Virus record (IMG/VR): IMGVR_UViG_3300010401_000033
Coordinates: 70,940-134,939 of that record
Direction: 5' to 3' (one strand)
Source: a virus
Length of the DNA stretch: 64,000 nt
The notes below the pieces were generated by a model that worked only from the letters and a program-made list of their open reading frames with translations, was not told the origin of the DNA and searched no databases. Positions 53,497 to 64,000 of this stretch are shown here, one piece after another. Within the stretch, counting starts at the first letter, position 1. Each line of letters begins with the position of its first letter. A program made the position numbers and the translations under genes.

Positions 53497-54669
53497 TTAT
53501 CCTTTCACGCACAAAATCTGGCGAAGTTGCGCGACGACCCTCACGAGGTCATTTTGATTTTCCATGACCCGGTCGATGTCCTTGTACGCCCCAGGCAATT
53601 CATCCAAGATACCTGCATCCTTACGACACACGATACCCGCCGTCTGCTTCTCAGCATCCTCTAAGGTAAAGGCTGACTTTGCCTTTGAGCGCGACTTGAC
53701 ACGACCTGCGCCGTGTGAGCACGAACAAAACGATTCAGGGTTTCCCAAACCTTCAACGATATAAGATCGGGTGCCCATCGATCCAGGAATAATACCAACA
53801 TCACCAATGCGAGCACGAACAGCCCCCTTACGGGTAACAATGACATTCTCGCCATAGTGATTTTCCTTTTCCGCATAGTTGTGGTGACAGTTCACCATGA
53901 GTTCAGGACCCATGTCGGCATCCTTGATATCCGTGCCAAAAATCGTCTTGGCCACTGCATCACGCACCAAGCGCATCATGAGTTCGCGGTTCTTCATCGC
54001 GTACCTCTGTGCCCACTGCAAATCACGCCAGTATTCATCATACAACACAGAACCCTCCGCAAGGTAGGCAAGGTTCGGGTCATGTAACTTTATCATATAC
54101 TGGTTCATGACTTCCTTCGCACGATCAATGTAGTAGTTCCCGATCTTGTTACCAATACCGCGGGAACCCGAGTGCAACATGATCCACACATTATCTTCCA
54201 AGTCAAGGCACACCTCAATGAAGTGGTTTCCGCCACCCAAGGTGCCTAACTGCTTCCCAATGCGCTCCGGGTTATCCTGAACCTTCTTCGGGAGGTGGCT
54301 CACGTCAACCAAATCAACCATAGAATGATTGTGCATATCCTGTCCAACGGGAACCGCCTTGCAAATCGCATCGTAGACTGCCTGAATGTTATCTGATACA
54401 CGCTTCCAGGGGCGCGGCATACGAGCCGCCATCATACCGCATCCAATATCCACACCCACACACGCCGGGACAATGGCACCCTTCGTGGCTACCACAGACC
54501 CTACAGTCGCCCCGATACCATAATGCACGTCCGGCATGACAGCCACATGCTTAAATATGAACGGGAGAGACGCCGTGTTGCGTAACTGATCTAACGCCGA
54601 CGATTCAACTTCGTGGATCGGCGACCAAATCTTAATTGGCTTATGAGTTCCGGTCTGTAAAACGTTCAT
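53497..54669 (-). CDS. rtcB: RtcB RNA ligase
   Basis: MPDVH.G.G, VGVDIGCG, GTLGGGNHF, HSGSRG, HHN, IPGSMG, SHGAGR. Confidence 0.96.
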   Translation of the reverse strand: MNVLQTGTHKPIKIWSPIHEVESSALDQLRNTASLPFIFKHVAVMPDVHYGIGATVGSVVATKGAIVPACVGVDIGCGMMAARMPRPWKRVSDNIQAVYDAICKAVPVGQDMHNHSMVDLVDVSHLPKKVQDNPERIGKQLGTLGGGNHFIEVCLDLEDNVWIMLHSGSRGIGNKIGNYYIDRAKEVMNQYMIKLHDPNLAYLAEGSVLYDEYWRDLQWAQRYAMKNRELMMRLVRDAVAKTIFGTDIKDADMGPELMVNCHHNYAEKENHYGENVIVTRKGAVRARIGDVGIIPGSMGTRSYIVEGLGNPESFCSCSHGAGRVKSRSKAKSAFTLEDAEKQTAGIVCRKDAGILDELPGAYKDIDRVMENQNDLVRVVAQLRQILCVKG

Positions 54670-54873: not shown

Positions 54874-55317
54874 TTATTTCTCCTTCGGTAACTGATTCAA
54901 AAACACGTCCATTTCATGCTTGTAGGCACCCTGTGCCCACTTCATTCTCTTACGACCCTGATCTGTAGACATGAAATAGGTCCATGACTCAGCCTTATTT
55001 AAGCGTACAACTTCCAGCAATGATAACGCCATAACTAGATCGGCATGAAGCGCCTGATACTTCGCCTGTTGTTCTGTGGCTCTCTTCTCAAGTTCATGCG
55101 AATGGTCTTGTGCTGCCCTCGCCTTGGACCTCGCATCCTCTACATGCAATTGAAGTTCAGTGAGCGCCTTTACTTCTTCGGGGGCAACCTTCGCCGGCTT
55201 GTCGGAATAGGCTTCTTGCAGTTCCCGTTCGAGCCGCGCAGTCTCTTTCTGTGCGTCGGCAAGGTCTGCCTTGAGGTCCGCAATCTCTTGAGCGGTTTCA
55301 TCCATGACGTTATTCAT
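54874..55317 (-). CDS. coiled-coil hypothetical protein
   Basis: Start reassigned to the ATG overlapping the ligase end. Confidence 0.55.
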   Translation of the reverse strand: MNNVMDETAQEIADLKADLADAQKETARLERELQEAYSDKPAKVAPEEVKALTELQLHVEDARSKARAAQDHSHELEKRATEQQAKYQALHADLVMALSLLEVVRLNKAESWTYFMSTDQGRKRMKWAQGAYKHEMDVFLNQLPKEK

Positions 55318-56467
55318 AATCACGTACAGCAATGCCGACAGGGAAAATCGGAATGCCATCGTCACTCAAACATTGATAGCGAACGGTCAGTTCCTTCCCA
55401 AAATAACTCTTACGATTCTGCCATTGTTCCTCACGGACTGAATCCTCGCCTTTGCATCGCACGTCAAATTCCTGCTTGTTCTTTGTTTGGCAACGGAAAA
55501 TGGCTTTCCCTTCATCCTTCCCTGTACCTTCTTTGCACCCGACAATCACGAATTCATCGTCAATGAAATCCTTATGCTTCTGCAATTGGTTATCACGGTA
55601 CTGAAAGTTGTAGGCTTCATTACCACCAGAGCGTATAATGGAACCTTCGTAGCCTGCTTGTGTGTAGGCACTGTGTACCTTGTCAATGTCCTTTGGAGAC
55701 AGAATCTTGATCGTCTCGACCAACCGGAGATAGTTCAACCCATTCGGAATCTGTGAACGATAACTGAGGTAACGGTCCGCAAATCCCCACTTGAGGGTGG
55801 TTGGACGATCATAACAATGGAACTTCACGTATCGCTTCAATTGCTCAACGTCCGGGTGCTTTTCATCCTTAATCAGCGACATAAGTTGCTGGAAGGTGAG
55901 TTCTCCGTGGTTATACATTTCCCCATCAAGGATATCCCCATCCTTCATGAAACTCAAAAACTCCTGCTCCATATAGAGATTGAAATTCTTGTACTTCTTT
56001 GCCTTGCGGGACCAGAAGGTAATTGTGTCACCTGTACGCTGAACGAGGCAACGGACTCCATTCAACTTCGGCTGAATGAAGGCTGGCCAGACGATATACT
56101 TGGCTCGTTCCTTGTACTTCTGTGCCAACATGGGCAGTAACTTGAGTTCAATCTTGGCATCCGCCGAAGGCTTTGTCTCCGTATAGTTCTTGTCGTGCTG
56201 TTTCTTCCACTTTGACTCTGCCTCTAAGAGCGCCTGCTCATAAGGGGTCGTCTCATTGGCTTTACCAGTGTTCTTTCCCTCACGAATCGTCTCAGGTGAC
56301 TCCTGAATCTTACCATCAAGTTGTCCATGACGAATCATGATAACCGGGGCATTGGAATGCTTCTGGACACTGATCTCCCATACCTTTATCACACCCTTTG
56401 AGGAAGTGCCATAGAGGGTGGGGAAGGTATCAACCGTTTTCGTCTTATTGCTTTTGTAAATCGTCAC
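55310..56467 (-). CDS. ATP-dependent DNA ligase
   Basis: PMLA, QPKLNGVR (motif I), LDGE.Y, EG..IR, K.K, P.FPV...RDYE. Confidence 0.9.
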   Translation of the reverse strand: MTIYKSNKTKTVDTFPTLYGTSSKGVIKVWEISVQKHSNAPVIMIRHGQLDGKIQESPETIREGKNTGKANETTPYEQALLEAESKWKKQHDKNYTETKPSADAKIELKLLPMLAQKYKERAKYIVWPAFIQPKLNGVRCLVQRTGDTITFWSRKAKKYKNFNLYMEQEFLSFMKDGDILDGEMYNHGELTFQQLMSLIKDEKHPDVEQLKRYVKFHCYDRPTTLKWGFADRYLSYRSQIPNGLNYLRLVETIKILSPKDIDKVHSAYTQAGYEGSIIRSGGNEAYNFQYRDNQLQKHKDFIDDEFVIVGCKEGTGKDEGKAIFRCQTKNKQEFDVRCKGEDSVREEQWQNRKSYFGKELTVRYQCLSDDGIPIFPVGIAVRDYE

Positions 56468-59300: not shown

Positions 59301-59375
59301 TGGTGCACCGCCCAGGAATTGCACCCGGTTCCCCTGGTTAAAAGCCAGGTAATCATCTACTAAATTTTGCGGTGC
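59301..59375 (-). tRNA. tRNA-Lys(UUU)
   Basis: Cloverleaf; CCTGG-CTTTTAA-CCAGG; CCA encoded; T-loop TGCAATT. Confidence 0.85.
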
Positions 59376-59380
59376 GTATA

Positions 59381-59454
59381 TGGTCGACCCTACAGGTTAC
59401 GCTCCTGTCTCTCCACAATGTCAATGTGGCATCTTGCTAATGGACGAAGGGTCG
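59381..59454 (-). tRNA. tRNA-Val(GAC)
   Basis: CCACA-TTGACAT-TGTGG; CCA; T-loop AGCGTAA. Confidence 0.8.
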
Positions 59455-59457
59455 TCG

Positions 59458-59534
59458 TGGTCTCCCTGACAGGACTCGAACCTGCATAATCGCTGGGTCG
59501 AAACCAGCGTGGCTTCCATTGCCGTCACAGGGAG
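59458..59534 (-). tRNA. tRNA-Arg(UCG)
   Basis: GCTGG-TTTCGAC-CCAGC; canonical T-loop; CCA. Confidence 0.8.
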
Positions 59535-59535
59535 G

Positions 59536-59937
59536 TTAGATCAAAAAGTCTCTCCACTTGATATCAAAAATACAATTCTCAGGAGCCCCACGAAACATCG
59601 GGGCGATCTGTGCATCCGTATATCCTGCCAAGCCACAACCTATGCGGGTGACAAAAAATACCTCATGCTCGTAGTATCGTGCGTATTCTAAAAAATCCTT
59701 CACCTGATGGTGAATATACTCCAATGCCAAAACATCAAGGTCTGCGCCCTTGGTAGGAATCGCATAGGATTGCCCGGTGAGTCCAATCCCTACTCCGTTC
59801 TTTGCTCCATAGTTCTCACGGGCACACTTCGCGGCTCCCGCTCCATGACGCCCTGCGAGGTTCGAGCCAAACACAAAGATACAGTCCTTGTACGCGGAAG
59901 AATGCCTTGGATAATCTTCATCAAAAAATAACATCAC
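59536..59937 (-). CDS. conserved phage protein, possibly macrodomain-like
   Basis: IFVFGSNLAGRHGAGAA, SYAIPTK, VTRIGCGLAGY; function tentative. Confidence 0.65.
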   Translation of the reverse strand: MMLFFDEDYPRHSSAYKDCIFVFGSNLAGRHGAGAAKCARENYGAKNGVGIGLTGQSYAIPTKGADLDVLALEYIHHQVKDFLEYARYYEHEVFFVTRIGCGLAGYTDAQIAPMFRGAPENCIFDIKWRDFLI

Positions 59938-59945
59938 ATCCTTAA

Positions 59946-60022
59946 TGGTGCCACTGGTGGGATTCTAACCCACAATTTCCCGCTTAGGAGGCGAGCGCAT
60001 TGTACAGTTATGCTACAGCGGC
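59946..60022 (-). tRNA. tRNA-Arg(CCU)
   Basis: CTCGC-CTCCTAA-GCGGG; CCA; T-loop TTAGAAT. Confidence 0.88.
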
Positions 60023-60023
60023 G

Positions 60024-60227
60024 TTAGTCCTTCATCGTGGGCTTAAACCACATGAGCGATTCAACACACTCCTCAAACATTTCGTCCGTAATCAATCCCT
60101 GCAATTGCATGATATGAAACGCATTCATCAGGAATCCCCACTTCTGCCACTCCAAGTCCTCGCGGATACCTTCATCCGTAAAGTCCTGTGGGTTTCTGAT
60201 TTCACGTTTAATCTCGGTCAATCGCAT
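60024..60227 (-). CDS. hypothetical protein
   Basis: MRLTEIKREIRNPQDF...; AAGGA SD; lies between tRNAs. Confidence 0.55.
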   Translation of the reverse strand: MRLTEIKREIRNPQDFTDEGIREDLEWQKWGFLMNAFHIMQLQGLITDEMFEECVESLMWFKPTMKD

Positions 60228-60242
60228 AATGTTCCTTTGGTA

Positions 60243-60318
60243 TGGTCCCCCTGGCAGGAGTTTAACCTGCGGTCTCCTTGTTAGAAGCAAGGCATGTTGT
60301 ACGCTACACCACAGAGGG
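60243..60318 (-). tRNA. tRNA-Arg(UCU)
   Basis: CCTTG-CTTCTAA-CAAGG; CCA; T-loop TTAAACT. Confidence 0.88.
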
Positions 60319-60327
60319 ATAACTTAG

Positions 60328-60410
60328 ATGGTAGAGGTCATCACTCCTCACTTATCCCACCCCAGCCTCATCGACCAGACTATGGGCTTCGTAGATTGTA
60401 TCCTACCATC
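60328..60410 (-). ncRNA. unknown multibranched small RNA candidate
   Basis: GATGGTAG/CTACCATC closing stem with internal hairpins. Confidence 0.45.
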
Positions 60411-60420
60411 ATAAAAACGA

Positions 60421-60478
60421 TGCACAGAAGAGGAATCGAACCTCAATATGGGGCGCCCCATAATGCCCAGTCTGTGCA
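60421..60478 (-). ncRNA. mini tRNA-like RNA lacking an anticodon loop
   Basis: GCACAGA/TCTGTGC acceptor; GAGG-TTCGATT-CCTC T-arm; TATGGG-GCGC-CCCATA arm; no D-stem and no CCA. Confidence 0.65.
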
Positions 60479-60483
60479 ACGAT

Positions 60484-60557
60484 TGGTGCTCCCACCGGGT
60501 GCTGCCCCCGGCTCTCCAGATTGAGAATCTGGCGATCTACTGATAATCTATGGGAGC
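60484..60557 (-). tRNA. tRNA-Glu(CUC)
   Basis: CCAGA-TTCTCAA-TCTGG; CCA; T-loop GGCAGCA. Confidence 0.8.
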
Positions 60558-60625
60558 GTAATGCTAGGGGCCCCACTTGAGGACCCCGTATGCTCATTTC
60601 CTACACATGGTAGGTGAGCGGTGAT

Positions 60626-60960
60626 TGGTGGAGCCGCCGGGAATTGCACCCGGGTCCAAAAACAACGTCGAAGGGGATTTTCATGCTAGACGATCTAACT
60701 GGATTGCCAACAAGGATCGTCAACCTGTTGGATATCGGAGCGAACATCCATCTAACCGTCCACGTAAAGGATGGGAACTTTACGATTTGACCTATAATGA
60801 CGTTTCCCCACATATAGGTGTCTGTGGTTCAACGGGCGGGGATTATGCCGCCATTGCAAACTCGCGTTCGACAATTCTGGTTTTCTAAGTTTTTACAGGG
60901 CCCTAGTCCCTGGCATGTCCTGTGCTTCTCTGTACGTCTCTGTCGATCCTGTGCGACCCC
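60626..60960 (-). ncRNA. ssrA: tmRNA
   Basis: 5' GGGGTCG..TCGAC and 3' CCGGGTGCAATTCCCGGCGGCTCCACCA with a G3-U Ala pair; tag ORF VEREFAMAA* at 60843-60872. Confidence 0.92.
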
Positions 60961-61056
60961 TTTCTCTGATTAAATAATTCTTCTAACTTACCTTCGCGGT
61001 CGAGTCTATCACACAACTCTGTAATTTGATTCACTAGCGCAAAGTAAGTACCCATG

Positions 61057-61284
61057 TTACCAACTATCGTAATCCGTCAAATCAATTACCGCGCCAGTAA
61101 CAGTATTCTCAACCTTAAGCACGGTGCCTATCGACGTGGGGGTAAAGTGATACGTGTACGCCCCGCCTATCGCTCCGTAGTGAGGACACTCACAACCTTC
61201 TTTGGTGGCCTGCCAAATCTTGTCCTGCTCCTCTATAAATGCGTTAATCTTTTCCTGTTCCTCGGGCGTCACATGAAACTTCAT
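61057..61284 (-). CDS. conserved hypothetical phage protein
   Basis: GAIGG.Y.Y.FTPTSIG....V, DLTDY..W. Confidence 0.65.
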   Translation of the reverse strand: MKFHVTPEEQEKINAFIEEQDKIWQATKEGCECPHYGAIGGAYTYHFTPTSIGTVLKVENTVTGAVIDLTDYDSW

Positions 61285-61616
61285 AATAAATTCCTTCTTT
61301 GCTTCCTTCGTTTATTCCCCTCTTCTAATGCCACTTTCCAAGAAGGTAGTTTTGTCAAATCCAAAACATTTTCTCTCGGAGTACCCCAGTATAAATGCTT
61401 TGGGTTGCAACAGAGGCTATTATTACAAGCGTGGCATAGGTATACTCGACCCATTCCCTTTGGAATGGTTGTTCTCAACTCATACGCCAGAAGGGCCCTG
61501 TATTCCGTGGAACATCTACCACCCAGTTCGATACAAGGTTCACTAAGGTCAAGGTGCGCTTGTCGCTCCTTTAGTTCCCTTGTGATATAGGTATAAATGT
61601 TCTCAAAAATCAACAT
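61281..61616 (-). CDS. HNH-type (His-Cys) endonuclease-like protein
   Basis: CHACNN..CCNP.HLYWGT..EN..D. Confidence 0.75.
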   Translation of the reverse strand: MLIFENIYTYITRELKERQAHLDLSEPCIELGGRCSTEYRALLAYELRTTIPKGMGRVYLCHACNNSLCCNPKHLYWGTPRENVLDLTKLPSWKVALEEGNKRRKQRRNLL

Positions 61617-61624
61617 AATATGAG

Positions 61625-61715
61625 TGGCGGAGAGAAGAGGACTTGCACCCCAACGCTTTTTACACGTCGATCTGCTTTCAAAACAGTCCCAATACGCTTG
61701 CCTGGTTTTCTCTCC
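61625..61715 (-). tRNA. tRNA-Ser(UGA)
   Basis: Loop TTTGAAA; long variable arm; G73; CCA. Confidence 0.85.
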
Positions 61716-61717
61716 AT

Positions 61718-61807
61718 TTATTGCATTTTCAGAATTTCAGTGAGAGCCAACACCAATCCCATGAGCACCGCGGCTCCAAACCACACTAACACTTCTTTCC
61801 AACTCAT
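61718..61807 (-). CDS. small membrane peptide, 29 aa
   Basis: MSWKEVLVWFGAAVLMGLVLALTEILKMQ; AAGGA SD. Confidence 0.5.
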   Translation of the reverse strand: MSWKEVLVWFGAAVLMGLVLALTEILKMQ

Positions 61808-61815
61808 TATATCCT

Positions 61816-61903
61816 TGGCGGAAGAGACAGGATTTGAACCTGCGTGGCTGTTACACCGCATCGCTTTCCAAGCGAGCACCATTAGCCTCTCGGTCACTCT
61901 TCC
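61816..61903 (-). tRNA. tRNA-Ser(GGA)
   Basis: Loop TTGGAAA; long variable arm; CCA. Confidence 0.92.
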
Positions 61904-62311
61904 TTAAAATCGTTTCTGATACACTCGCCAAATCTTTTGTGCCACATCCAAATTAAAATGGGGCTTCTTATCTCTTACTTGCTTTTCATCTTCATCTGTC
62001 AACAGATATCGTGCCAATCCGACGGCGATGCCTGCGGATCGTGACATGCCTGCTTCACAGTGAATCACAATTCTATCAGAATCTAACAACCACTTCTCAA
62101 CGAAGTCTGCCACTTCAACCGCTTGGGCGTCTGAGAACCCCTGTTCATGCACTTCGTACCGCATCGTGTCTTTGAAGTGAAGATTCAGCCGTGCCAAACA
62201 ATCAACAGACTGGCGCGGGTGCTCTCTTCCAGGTGATACAATAGAAATCACGATATCACGGTTCGTGATGGGCTCAACACGAAATTCCTGCTCTGATAAC
62301 ACTCGAATCAT
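61904..62311 (-). CDS. PTP/dual-specificity phosphatase-like protein
   Basis: IHCEAGMSRS (CX5R). Confidence 0.8.
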   Translation of the reverse strand: MIRVLSEQEFRVEPITNRDIVISIVSPGREHPRQSVDCLARLNLHFKDTMRYEVHEQGFSDAQAVEVADFVEKWLLDSDRIVIHCEAGMSRSAGIAVGLARYLLTDEDEKQVRDKKPHFNLDVAQKIWRVYQKRF

Positions 62312-62323
62312 AATGTATCCTGC

Positions 62324-62411
62324 TGGCGGAAGGCTGAGGTCTTGATCCCCACGGTGTTACCCGCGATTCGCTTTCGAGGCGATCCCGACGCGCCCGTTCG
62401 GTTAACCTTCC
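62324..62411 (-). tRNA. tRNA-Ser(CGA)
   Basis: Loop CTCGAAA; long variable arm; CCA. Confidence 0.85.
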
Positions 62412-62418
62412 AAATACA

Positions 62419-62484
62419 GACCGCGTAGCAAGGTTCCTCTGGTCCCCTTTGCCGCATTCTCCTGTTCGGCGTGAACCCGCGGTC
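62419..62484 (-). ncRNA. unknown small structured RNA candidate
   Basis: Nested GACCGCG/CGCGGTC, GGTTC/GAACC and GCCG/CGGC stems. Confidence 0.5.
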
Positions 62485-62489
62485 ATTTA

Positions 62490-62576
62490 TGGCGGAAGAG
62501 AGAGGACTCGAACCCCACGGTGTTACCCGCGATCCGATTAGCAATCGGTCCAGTTACCCTGCACTGGTTCTCTTCC
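62490..62576 (-). tRNA. tRNA-Ser(GCU)
   Basis: Loop TTGCTAA; long variable arm; CCA. Confidence 0.9.
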
Positions 62577-62579
62577 AAG

Positions 62580-62656
62580 TGGTCTCCTCGGGTGGACTCG
62601 AACCACCGATCTCCACCTTCGCAGGGTGGCGTCTTATCCATCTGGACTACGAGGAG
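62580..62656 (-). tRNA. tRNA-Arg(GCG)
   Basis: CCACC-CTGCGAA-GGTGG; A20; CCA. Confidence 0.9.
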
Positions 62657-62668
62657 GTATGTGCTGAC

Positions 62669-62715
62669 AAGAGTAGCAATTATTTACCGGTGTCGTTATC
62701 ACACCCGCTACTCTT
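62669..62715 (-). ncRNA. small hairpin RNA candidate
   Basis: AAGAGTAGC/GCTACTCTT stem enclosing a GGTGT/ACACC hairpin. Confidence 0.45.
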
Positions 62716-62718
62716 ATA

Positions 62719-62793
62719 TGGTGCACCGCGTAGGAATCAAACCTACTTGATCCTGCTTGTAAAACAGGCGCCTATTCAATCGGCCTGCGGTGC
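62719..62793 (-). tRNA. tRNA-Val(UAC)
   Basis: CCTGT-TTTACAA-GCAGG; CCA; T-loop TTTGATT. Confidence 0.85.
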
Positions 62794-62798
62794 GTATA

Positions 62799-62874
62799 TG
62801 GAGCCCCCTGTCAGAATTGCACTGACCATCTCGACCTTACCAAGGTCTTGCCCCGCTCACTGGGCCTAGAGGGC
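62799..62874 (-). tRNA. tRNA-Thr(GGU)
   Basis: Loop TTGGTAA; CCA; T-loop TGCAATT. Confidence 0.85.
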
Positions 62875-62880
62875 GAATTT

Positions 62881-62950
62881 GTGATAAGTTGCTAAGTTAG
62901 ATTACTTTTGCCCGTTAGGGATTAGAGTTGCCAAAATAACAACTTATCAT
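62881..62950 (-). ncRNA. small structured RNA candidate
   Basis: 13-bp TGATAAGTTGTTA/TAGCAACTTATCA stem with inner TTTTG/CAAAA and CCC-TAAC-GGG. Confidence 0.45.
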
Positions 62951-62958
62951 ATTTAATA

Positions 62959-63236
62959 GGACAAACGATAAGCGGCGTTCTGTCGTGAACTAACATTTAT
63001 CTAGGAGTGTAATTACTCACACCCTCCAGCCTCCTACCCGCCAGATCGTATGCGAACAGCACACTGGCTTATTTGGAGTTGCACCGGATAGAGATTGCTG
63101 GTTTCACTTCCCCCTTGCGGGTTCTTCCTCACTGTGGCTCTAATCCTCGGATTACTCCGGGTGGTCGTTAGCCACTATCCTGTTCTCTGGTGCGCCGACT
63201 TTCCTCTGGCTTGCGCCAGCGTTAGTTTGTTTCTCC
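62959..63236 (-). ncRNA. rnpB: RNase P RNA (compact bacterial type-A-like)
   Basis: GAGGAAAGTCGGCG ... ACAGAACGCCGCTTA (P4); P2 CTAACG/TGTTAG; P3 with GCAA loop; P6 GAACAG/CTGTTC; L15 GGU; P18 with GTAA loop. Confidence 0.92.
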
Positions 63237-63242
63237 TATATG

Positions 63243-63320
63243 TGGTGCCGAAGGTGGGACTCGAACCCACAAGAAACTGGTTTTGAATCAGTTATGTCTG
63301 CCAATTGCAATCACTTCGGC
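63243..63320 (-). tRNA. tRNA-Leu(CAA), short variable loop
   Basis: Loop TTCAAAA; D-loop AATTGGCAGA; A73; CCA. Confidence 0.85.
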
Positions 63321-63562
63321 GGTAAAACTGTTGTGACATACTCACAACCTAATCCGTAGACAACGGTGATAATTCGTCCTCGTAATTCAACTTGAACAAT
63401 CTTTTGTTTCTTCTCCCCTAATGCTTCGAGGAGCCCATTACCTAATTTGGCACATCTACAGAGGTGCTCATAATCTGCCTTTGAGAGAACCATGCTGTAG
63501 CGTTCCTGCAAACGCTGCTTCGTGTGCTCAAATGAGTAGGCTCTGTCTTTCTTCGTTTTCAT
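63311..63562 (-). CDS. hypothetical protein; stop codon lies inside tRNA-Leu(CAA)
   Basis: MKTKKDRAYSFEH..RL.ERY....TTVLPPK*. Confidence 0.6.
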   Translation of the reverse strand: MKTKKDRAYSFEHTKQRLQERYSMVLSKADYEHLCRCAKLGNGLLEALGEKKQKIVQVELRGRIITVVYGLGCEYVTTVLPPK

Positions 63563-63563
63563 A

Positions 63564-63641
63564 TGGTGCCAGAGAAGGGACTCGAACCCCCAGGCGCTTC
63601 GTTTTAAGTGAAGCAGGTCTGCCAATTGCACTCACTCTGGC
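63564..63641 (-). tRNA. tRNA-Leu(UAA), short variable loop
   Basis: Loop CTTAAAA; D-loop AATTGGCAGA; CCA. Confidence 0.85.
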
Positions 63642-63645
63642 GTCA

Positions 63646-63720
63646 TGGAGCCCTTTACTGAACTTGCATCAGCCTATCCTGCTTACGAAACAGGCGCCTC
63701 GCTATCTAGGCTTAAAGGGC
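63646..63720 (-). tRNA. tRNA-Thr(CGU)
   Basis: CCTGT-TTCGTAA-GCAGG; CCA; T-loop TGCAAGT. Confidence 0.85.
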
Positions 63721-63724
63721 ATTA

Positions 63725-63802
63725 TGGTCAGGGAGGTGGGATTTGAACCCACAATCACTCGCTTCCGAAGCGAGTAGAGTAACCAGATTCTCCTACTCCC
63801 TG
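63725..63802 (-). tRNA. tRNA-Pro(CGG)
   Basis: CTCGC-TTCGGAA-GCGAG; C1-G72; CCA. Confidence 0.9.
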
Positions 63803-63813
63803 TTATTCTCGGT

Positions 63814-63893
63814 TCCCCCTCCTGTTACTAGCGGATGCAAGTTTCCTTGCCATGCAAACCTCCGCGCGGTCGGCACTCCTTACAGGAAGGGGA
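63814..63893 (-). ncRNA. unknown small structured RNA candidate
   Basis: TCCCCTTCCTGT/ACAGGAGGGGGA stem; GCGGA/TCCGC; GCAAG-GAAA-CTTGC GNRA hairpin. Confidence 0.55.
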
Positions 63894-63895
63894 TA

Positions 63896-63969
63896 TGGAG
63901 CGAGCACCGGATTCTGCCACCGGGACTGCGGGTTGGAAGCCCGCGGTTTTTCTTGTAAACTATGCTCGC
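63896..63969 (-). tRNA. tRNA-Gly(UCC)
   Basis: GCGGG-CTTCCAA-CCCGC; U73; CCA; T-loop GGCAGAA. Confidence 0.82.
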
Positions 63970-63976
63970 GTATGTA

Positions 63977-64000
63977 TGGAGCGGGTGACGGGTAACGCTC
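63977..64000 (-). tRNA. 3' part of a tRNA, probably Gly, truncated by the window edge
   Basis: ...AGCGTTACCCGTCACCCGCTCCA; Gly-type acceptor end. Confidence 0.6.

Follow-up and report, generated by a model that had tools for sequence, protein, structure and literature searches.

Textbooks present G18, G19, pseudouridine 55 and C56 as fixed features of cytoplasmic transfer RNA (tRNA), on which a large number of enzymes and RNAs are believed to rely. We describe here an array of 18 complete tRNA genes from a soil phage, ten of which depart from the G18 G19/U54 U55 C56 rule at the elbow formed by the D-loop and the T-loop, each departure being matched by its partner. The array occupies positions 59301–63969 (minus strand) of the window, by which we mean the whole 64,000-nucleotide stretch analysed; this is the last 64 kb of the 134,939-base virus record IMGVR_UViG_3300010401_000033, which is about 80% complete.

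Published work describes the elbow as follows. Position 56 forms a Watson–Crick pair with 19 and position 18 stacks between 57 and 58, the contact between G18 and pseudouridine 55 being a single hydrogen bond (PMC4810234). T-loops generally combine a trans Watson–Crick:Hoogsteen handle with a UNR or GNR turn; the handle is U:A in 92% of them, C:A, A:A, G:A and G:G also occur, and tRNA is the 'U-clamp' case, while the 'G-clamp' is found in other T-loops (ribosomal RNA, RNase P RNA and riboswitches; PMC2615604). Contacts to the elbow from RNase P, T-box leaders and the ribosomal L1 stalk are made by stacking, irrespective of sequence (PMC4919913). Among published natural cases, the nearest to the one reported here is the staphylococcal non-proteogenic tRNA-Gly, in which TGC or TGT replaces TTC, there is no pseudouridine (PMC7826273) and positions 18–19 are U18U19 or C18U19 (PMC4574755). 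The open-access literature yielded no paper on phage tRNAs whose elbows vary in a compensated way; older subscription papers on phage tRNAs may hold cases.

In our view, the variant genes of this array are probably working phage tRNAs that would take up the normal L-shape through alternative D-loop/T-loop contacts, co-maintained by compensating substitutions. Below we set out the elbow states in the window, their covariation across related phages, the possible reasons for their retention and their likeness to known systems.

Elbow states of the window tRNAs

From position 59301 to the end of the contig all RNA genes lie on the minus strand, and a 19th tRNA gene is truncated by the contig end. 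The tRNA genes are listed below with the means by which each was found or read.

63977..64000, minus: 19th tRNA, 3' end only; T-loop AGCGUUA (G55 type), encoded CCA; the window end is the record end
63896..63969, minus: tRNA-Gly(UCC); T-loop GGCAGAA (G54 G55 C56 A57 G58), D-loop ACAAGAA (A18 G19)
63725..63802, minus: tRNA-Pro(CGG); canonical elbow, UUCAAAU with GG; ARAGORN, Rfam, parse
63646..63720, minus: tRNA-Thr(CGU); T-loop UGCAAGU, D-loop AGAUAGCG (A18 G19); Rfam alignment, parse
63564..63641, minus: tRNA-Leu(UAA); canonical elbow, 5-nt variable loop; Rfam, ARAGORN with lowered threshold
63243..63320, minus: tRNA-Leu(CAA); canonical elbow, 5-nt variable loop; ARAGORN, Rfam
62799..62874, minus: tRNA-Thr(GGU); T-loop UGCAAUU, D-loop AGUGAGCG (A18 G19); Rfam 41.3 bits, ARAGORN with lowered threshold, parse
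62719..62793, minus: tRNA-Val(UAC); T-loop UUUGAUU (U56), D-loop AUUGAAU (G18 A19); ARAGORN, Rfam aligns GA to G18G19
62580..62656, minus: tRNA-Arg(GCG); canonical elbow; ARAGORN, Rfam, parse
62490..62576, minus: tRNA-Ser(GCU), class II; T-loop UUCGAGU, D-loop GG; ARAGORN, read by hand; T-loop in line with the consensus
62324..62411, minus: tRNA-Ser(CGA); T-loop AUCAAGA (A54, U55, C56, A60), D-loop GG; ARAGORN with lowered threshold, parse
61816..61903, minus: tRNA-Ser(GGA); canonical elbow; ARAGORN, Rfam, parse
61625..61715, minus: tRNA-Ser(UGA), class II; T-loop UGCAAGU, AG at the D-loop index of the GG of Ser-GGA; read by hand
60484..60557, minus: tRNA-Glu(CUC); T-loop GGCAGCA, D-loop AUCAGUA (A18 G19); Rfam alignment, parse; not in ARAGORN default output
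60243..60318, minus: tRNA-Arg(UCU); T-loop UUAAACU (A56), D-loop AGCGUACA (G18 U19); ARAGORN, Rfam aligns GU to G18G19
59946..60022, minus: tRNA-Arg(CCU); T-loop UUAGAAU (A56), D-loop AACUGUACA (G18 U19); ARAGORN, parse
59458..59534, minus: tRNA-Arg(UCG); canonical elbow; ARAGORN, parse, Rfam alignment
59381..59454, minus: tRNA-Val(GAC); T-loop AGCGUAA (A54 G55 C56 G57 U58), D-loop AUUAGCA (A18 G19); ARAGORN, parse
59301..59375, minus: tRNA-Lys(UUU); T-loop UGCAAUU, D-loop UAGUAGAU (A18 G19); ARAGORN with lowered threshold, parse

Elbow states were assigned with a cloverleaf parser that uses base pairing alone and ignores loop sequence. It placed 14 of the 18 window tRNAs as cloverleaves, defined by a 7-bp acceptor stem, anticodon and T stems of 5 bp, a D stem of 3–4 bp, and anticodon and T loops of seven bases, with scores of 18.7–21.4 (maximum about 21.8); the two Leu tRNAs scored low (16.5–17.3), Ser-GCU was off by one base and Ser-UGA failed, and these were read by hand. 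U33 and a purine at 37 are present in every window parse, and CCA is encoded after the discriminator in all 18.

A first-pass annotation of the sequence had held that only eight of the 18 tRNAs retain the usual contacts, and the parse and hand reading bear this out: U55-C56 stands with GG in Pro-CGG, Leu-UAA, Leu-CAA, Arg-GCG, Ser-GCU, Ser-GGA, Arg-UCG and Ser-CGA, the last of which has A54 (T-loop AUCAAGA) yet keeps U55-C56 and GG. The variant classes that it had proposed were recovered as well. Seven tRNAs (Gly-UCC, Thr-CGU, Thr-GGU, Ser-UGA, Glu-CUC, Val-GAC and Lys-UUU) combine G55-C56 with AG and have no GG at 18–19, while by the cloverleaf parse Arg-UCU and Arg-CCU combine U55-A56 with GU, and Val-UAC alone combines U55-U56 with GA. 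The linked states at 54 and 58 are likewise as described there: Val-GAC has A54/U58, and both Gly and Glu have G54/G58.

Whether the AG, GU and GA dinucleotides truly occupy positions 18–19 was a point on which that annotation took its reading to turn. Rfam alignments, which cover seven of the ten variant tRNAs (there is none for Val-GAC or Ser-UGA, and Thr-GGU was scored without a printed alignment), put the dinucleotide in the G18G19 columns in six of the seven: Glu, Val-UAC, Thr-CGU, Arg-UCU, Gly and Lys. The alignment of Arg-CCU is displaced by one column with low posterior; four of its orthologues in the clade have A56 and GU at the same place in the loop.

ARAGORN at default settings recovers ten of the 18 genes, as does Rfam at its own threshold, so that phage tRNA repertoires and codon-supply analyses taken from such tools would be incomplete. 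RF00005 scores exceed 29 bits, the gathering cut-off, in 13 of the 18; tRNA-Gly(UCC), which ARAGORN overlooks at default settings, scores 39.2 bits with its AG aligned to G18G19, and tRNA-Lys is marginally below the cut-off at 28.1 bits. The sole Rfam match of Ser-GCU is to tRNA-Sec, at 31.3 bits where the cut-off is 47. There was no Rfam tRNA match for Val-GAC, Ser-UGA or Ser-CGA, and Ser-UGA was also unseen by ARAGORN at either the default or the lowered threshold. The Rfam shortfall falls mainly on genes with variant elbows, as expected of a model trained on canonical loops.

Covariation across related phages

The 133-residue protein encoded within the array (59536–59937, minus strand) has no Pfam match; used as bait, it led to relatives in 75 viral loci, many of them adjoining tRNA genes. 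Two DNA patterns added four further members of the same phage clade (L078, L080, L081 and L083); L082 proved to be the same contig as L004. The pool comprised the window and viral contigs that include seven of the same clade. Hits from ARAGORN, Rfam and a covariance model were merged into 241 candidates, of which nine had no parse; this left 200 distinct tRNAs and, after removal of 15 low-scoring and two mis-registered rows, 183 for analysis. The covariance model favours variant tRNAs (it overlooked the canonical Pro of the window), and since the detection biases are opposite the union of hits was counted.

The first-pass annotation had claimed covariation without exception within its own alignment, and the claim extends to the pool: the 18–19 dinucleotide predicted from 55–56 is present in 183 of 183 tRNAs, and at least 17 switches of state, considered below, are matched. 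When T-loops were shuffled among the tRNAs in 20,000 trials the mean was 94.6 matches and the maximum 113. GG accompanies U55-C56 in 119/119 cases, whereas G55-C56 is accompanied by AG in 48/48 and by GG in 0/48. U56 occurs with GA (6/6), A56 with GU (6/6), G55-A56 with AU (2/2) and G56 with GC (2/2). AG without GG thus characterizes 48/48 of the G55 class against 0/119 of the U55-C56 class (Fisher p = 4.6e-43, uncorrected for relatedness). The pair 19–56 is always Watson–Crick, as G-C, U-A, A-U or C-G, and G55 in place of U goes with A18 in place of G without exception. Variant elbows account for 64 of the 183 tRNAs, with 29 distinct variant T-loop sequences, and in their D-loops the predicted dinucleotide lies 3–5 bases in and is followed by 2–3 bases, within the canonical range. 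Three candidates on which the parser had failed also obey the rule when loosely re-parsed.

Positions 54, 58 and 60 covary too. The 54/58 combinations among the 183 are U/A (140), G/G (18), A/A (10), A/U (10), C/A (4) and G/U (1); position 60 is a pyrimidine in 140/140 tRNAs with U54, and A in 19/19 with G54 and in 18/20 with A54. Positions 55–57 of the pooled tRNAs conform to a UNR or GNR turn, with U or G at 55 in all 183 and a purine at 57 in 182. The 8–14 pair departs from the usual more often in variants (19/64, compared with 14/119 of the canonical tRNAs), as A8/U14, A8/A14 or G8/G14; in the window, the parse of tRNA-Lys(UUU) has A8 with U14.

Within same-anticodon groups (38 groups from eight clade contigs) we count at least 17 switches of the 55–56 state, and the D-loop is matched each time. 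Arg-UCU alone has four states: A56/U19 in the window, U56/A19 in L002 and L083, G55-A56/A18-U19 in L003, and the canonical form in L004 and L081. Arg-GCG is canonical, U56/A19 (L004) or G56/C19 (L081), and between the Lys-UUU genes of L002 and L003 the change from C56 to A56 is coupled with that from G19 to U19. In the clade the variant design spans at least 21 anticodons and many amino acids, nine anticodon groups occur in variant form only, and the same few designs (UGCRA, GGCRG and AGCRU) recur in unrelated T-stems.

We considered whether the AG, GU and GA dinucleotides could be chance matches in short loops, or the tRNAs decaying pseudogenes. D-loops are short and rich in A and G, AG stands at the allowed place in ten of the 119 canonical D-loops, and several variant genes are below threshold or absent in the Rfam results. 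Set against this are the complete agreement of the pool, which shuffling never brought above 113, and the 17 matched switches, together with intact cloverleaves, encoded CCA and retained Ala identity marks. CCA is encoded in 171 of the 183 pooled tRNAs. G3.U70 is the classical identity mark for alanyl-tRNA synthetase, and G3.U70 with A73 is found in all eight pooled tRNA-Ala, six of them variants; the window itself has no tRNA-Ala. Stems are intact in the parse and compensated between relatives, none of the 183 has an uncompensated elbow, and orthologues are found across the eight clade contigs, none of which is the pattern of pseudogenes. Contigs from another soil run span 59301–60668 with eight differences, all of them outside the six tRNA genes of that stretch, which lends slight further support. 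Clean cloverleaves, encoded CCA and G3.U70 in every tRNA-Ala together argue that these are probably working genes and not products of decay, and we regard chance or decay as extremely improbable. The proposal that the L-shape is kept by compensated change under selection is thus supported by the covariation, the switches and the kept identity marks, as far as sequence comparison can speak to it.

Several points weigh against this interpretation. The assignment to 18–19 is a matter of sequence position in a loop of variable length, and the allowed place in the D-loop (2–4 bases before the loop end) was set after the window had been seen. Relatedness is left out of the p-values. The one figure that allows for it is the number of switches, 17, which presumes that genes with the same anticodon are orthologues. 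Three of the low-scoring rows that were dropped have variant T-loops (two Met-CAU and one with a UAU anticodon), and their short D-loops show the predicted dinucleotide only outside the allowed place in what is a poor parse. The transfer-messenger RNAs (tmRNAs) are a further difficulty. Seven of eight have T-loops of the G55 type (six of seven in the clade alone), some apparently of eight bases, L078 being canonical; five of the seven G55-type tmRNAs keep AGG in the D-loop analogue, identical to that of the canonical L078 tmRNA, and AG without GG is found in only two (L081 and L032), so that the A18 rule is not clearly obeyed.

If the preferred reading is correct, the G55 loops would be ordinary T-loop motifs in which a GNR turn, the 'G-clamp', substitutes for the UNR turn of tRNA, as suggested by the T-loop anatomy in PMC2615604. 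A18 would assume the stacking and contact role of G18 as the partner of G55, and the fold would be retained. Such G55 tRNAs would be unable to bear pseudouridine 55, nor could the G54 and A54 forms be expected to bear m5U54, and proteins that read bases would no longer meet the universal U54-U55-C56/G18-G19 signature. Readers that stack, such as RNase P and the L1 stalk, should still accept the variant elbows: the flat Watson–Crick platform presented to RNase P, T-box leaders and the L1 stalk would stay, because stacking ignores sequence (PMC4919913).

Contents of the array and possible reasons for the variant elbows

Besides tRNAs the array encodes a bacterial class A RNase P RNA and a tmRNA, and small open reading frames are interspersed among its genes, one of them phosphatase-like (below the Pfam cut-off) and one HNH-like. 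Three further genes lie just downstream of the array.

62953..63238, minus: RNase P RNA, bacterial class A, 286 nt; Rfam RF00010, 191.5 bits, full model length
60626..60960, minus: tmRNA; T-loop UGCAAUU (G55 type); Rfam RF00023, 78.6 bits
56852–57781, minus: RlaP-family nucleotidyltransferase
55310–56467, minus: ATP-dependent ligase
53497–54669, minus: RtcB RNA ligase

RtcB, the ATP-dependent ligase and RlaP together look like an RNA-repair module. The window RNase P RNA is missing a 43-position stretch after the conserved GUGAAA motif, presumably P13/P14. RNase P RNA also lies within the array in three more clade contigs (L004 6202–6531, L081 5410–5721 and L083 8848–9131), and all four copies are compact, at 284–330 nt. 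No paper on a phage-encoded RNase P RNA was found in the open-access literature. Neither RNase P protein (PF00825) nor TruB (PF01509) was found in the genome of the window (G000, about 80% complete) or in the complete genome G001, which corresponds to L004.

We note several other features of the array. Both window Leu tRNAs have 5-nt variable loops, not the usual bacterial long arm, and an A31.C39 mismatch; all Leu tRNAs in L004, L081 and L083 are likewise short-looped (5–6 nt). The idea that short Leu tRNAs are unique to the window phage was rejected, as the cultured Microbacterium phage Pumpernickel has Leu tRNAs of 75–76 nt. Arg-UCG, Ser-CGA and Ser-UGA join the acceptor stem to the D stem through three bases, not two, and the three-base form of Arg-UCG (UGA) recurs in L001/L002, L004, L078, L081 and L083. 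Just after tRNA-Glu, at 60421–60478 (minus strand), comes a tRNA-like element of 58 nt that has an acceptor stem and a T-arm of canonical form but neither a D arm nor an anticodon arm of the normal kind; it contains one strain difference. An element of the Ser(CGA) type is present in L076 (6001–6094), and phiCbK-like phages of Caulobacter have in their tRNA arrays an unannotated Ser-CGA-like element (AUCGAGA) at 74–79% identity. The phosphatase-like gene (61904–62311, minus strand) encodes 135 residues with a DSPc match below Pfam's cut-off; it is missing from a near-identical strain in the other soil run, where two contigs join 61906 or 61910 to 62323, and a search for relatives of its protein found none. 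A blastn comparison of the whole array with cultured phages gave only short matches to canonical Ser, Pro and Arg tRNAs, and no G55 tRNA.

A rival explanation is adaptation: the variant elbows would belong, with the RNase P RNA and tmRNA that the phage encodes, to a partly independent tRNA subsystem for processing and rescue, the ribozyme taking substrates that the host enzyme would handle poorly. RNase P RNA co-occurs with variant elbows in four variant-rich clade contigs (the window, L004/G001, L081 and L083), its four copies are all compact, and six of the seven clade tmRNAs are of the G55 type. The complete 225-kb phage genome G002, however, has no RNase P RNA and yet has variant elbows in two of its six tRNAs, which rules out RNase P RNA as a requirement for them. 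RNase P moreover senses the elbow by stacking and not by base identity (PMC4919913), and with no RNase P protein in G000 or G001 a phage ribozyme would still depend on the host subunit. We consider this adaptation quite unlikely. Somewhat less unlikely, though still doubtful, is a partly orthogonal support of translation, in which the phage would supply its own RNase P RNA, tmRNA and some 40 tRNAs, a third to a half of them without T-pseudouridine-C/GG. Phage protein synthesis could then survive an attack, either by a T-loop nuclease of host abortive infection or by a phage host-shutoff enzyme that spares the phage's own pool, with RtcB and RlaP repairing the rest.

Many tRNA-targeting defences are now known. 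Our best single guess, offered tentatively, is that factors of the host or of competitors that target the T-loop would fail to act on a tRNA pool in which its universal form is missing. That genes for RNA repair, RtcB and RlaP, adjoin the array makes this plausible and does no more. A bacterial toxin of contact-dependent inhibition, CdiA-CT E479, cuts the T-loop between T and pseudouridine, according to PMC9086364; it is not a phage-defence protein. Other observations tell against escape and against a change confined to the elbow. Eight of the 18 window tRNAs remain canonical, and the divergence at 8–14 in the variants means that divergence extends beyond the elbow surface. To readers that stack without regard to sequence, any Watson–Crick 19–56 pair should look much alike (PMC4919913). 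No published anti-phage T-loop nuclease was found, and neither the T-loop nor the elbow is mentioned in the PARIS AriB, bacterial Schlafen or Cas12a3 papers.

Another reading is neutral compensated drift, in which fast-evolving auxiliary tRNAs are selected for pair geometry and not for base identity, and the elbow drifts as a stem does. Across the clade, tRNAs that share an anticodon also diverge in each of their four stems, the 8–14 pair varies and does so more commonly with a variant elbow (19/64 against 14/119), many solutions coexist, as the 29 variant T-loop sequences attest, and elbow readers that act by stacking do so without sequence specificity (PMC4919913). Drift is less readily squared with the controls. 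In Microbacterium phage Pumpernickel the 39 annotated tRNAs are canonical without exception, as are all 16 of L038, and in the array of Caulobacter phage BL57 the 24 cleanly parsed tRNAs (24/24) have U55-C56 T-loops; with large sets elsewhere canonical, relaxed constraint alone fails to explain the enrichment in this clade. The recurrence of UGCRA, GGCRG and AGCRU in unrelated T-stems also counts against drift, as does the lack of intermediates: there is no G19.U56 wobble among the six U55-U56 tRNAs and no uncompensated state among the 64 variants. Drift is a strong contender that we place a little short of even; escape and drift appear to us about equally likely, and nothing here favours escape over drift.

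A further explanation is that the variants avoid the ribosome and donate amino acids elsewhere, in the manner of the staphylococcal non-proteogenic tRNA-Gly. That tRNA shares the TGC/TGT T-loop without pseudouridine (PMC7826273) and also lacks G18G19 (PMC4574755). The spread of the phage design over at least 21 anticodons and many amino acids, with nine anticodon groups variant only, is hard to reconcile with such a role, and 19–56 is Watson–Crick here as opposed to the U18U19 or C18U19 reported in the staphylococcal case (PMC4574755). We think this explanation very unlikely.

Comparison with known systems

The locus contributes the richest set of 19–56 swaps that we have seen, comprising all four Watson–Crick pairs and a double change, along with switches within a clade and accompanying genes for RNase P RNA, tmRNA and RNA repair. 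The matched switches, at least 17 in number, amount to a natural experiment in which evolution accepts A18 with G55, any Watson–Crick pair at 19–56, and linked changes at 54, 58 and 60. They supply, from nature, covariation evidence on tertiary contacts that elsewhere are conserved too strongly to show variation. If escape is the true explanation, the locus would point to an undescribed class of T-loop-directed tRNA attack in the conflict between phage and host, and would provide existing tRNA scaffolds closed to modification by TruB and TrmA.

With the canonical elbow (RF00005) the phage tRNAs share the cloverleaf, the seven-base T-loop, the place of 18–19, a Watson–Crick 19–56 pair and the purine at 57; they differ in G55/A18 and in A56, U56 or G56 with U19, A19 or C19, found in ten of the 18 window tRNAs and 64 of the 183 pooled. 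The T-loop of the eukaryotic initiator tRNA has A54 and A60. The same A54-A60 combination occurs here in Glu tRNAs with AUCGAUA and in Ser-CGA with AUCAAGA; unlike the eukaryotic initiator, these are bacterial-type phage elongators, and they keep U55-C56 and GG.

Compared with the general T-loop motif in PMC2615604, the UGCRA, CGCRA and GGCRG loops fit both the handle (U:A, C:A and G:G, respectively) and the GNR turn, although the G-clamp described there belongs to T-loops outside tRNA and here it would occur in tRNAs. As far as sequence goes, the U/A, G/G, A/A and C/A combinations at 54/58 are all among the handles that the paper lists, and the putative A54/U58 (10/183) and G54/U58 (1/183) handles are outside its list.

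Phage tRNAs that escape anticodon nucleases (PMC10264068) provide a second comparison. Common to both systems are phage tRNAs that differ from those of the host at sites of hostile enzymes, and the RNA-repair genes adjoining the present array suggest a conflict of the same kind. The escape described there is through changes in the anticodon loop, in a text that does not mention the T-loop, D-loop or elbow, whereas the changes here are in the elbow and their link to defence is putative.

The staphylococcal tRNA-Gly resembles the G55 variants in its TGC T-loop and in the lack of G18G19. Its elbow is uncompensated, and it serves one amino acid and cell-wall synthesis and is kept from translation (PMC7826273; PMC4574755). 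The phage tRNAs, by contrast, have A18 G19 in all 48 of the 48 G55-C56 cases and span many anticodons.

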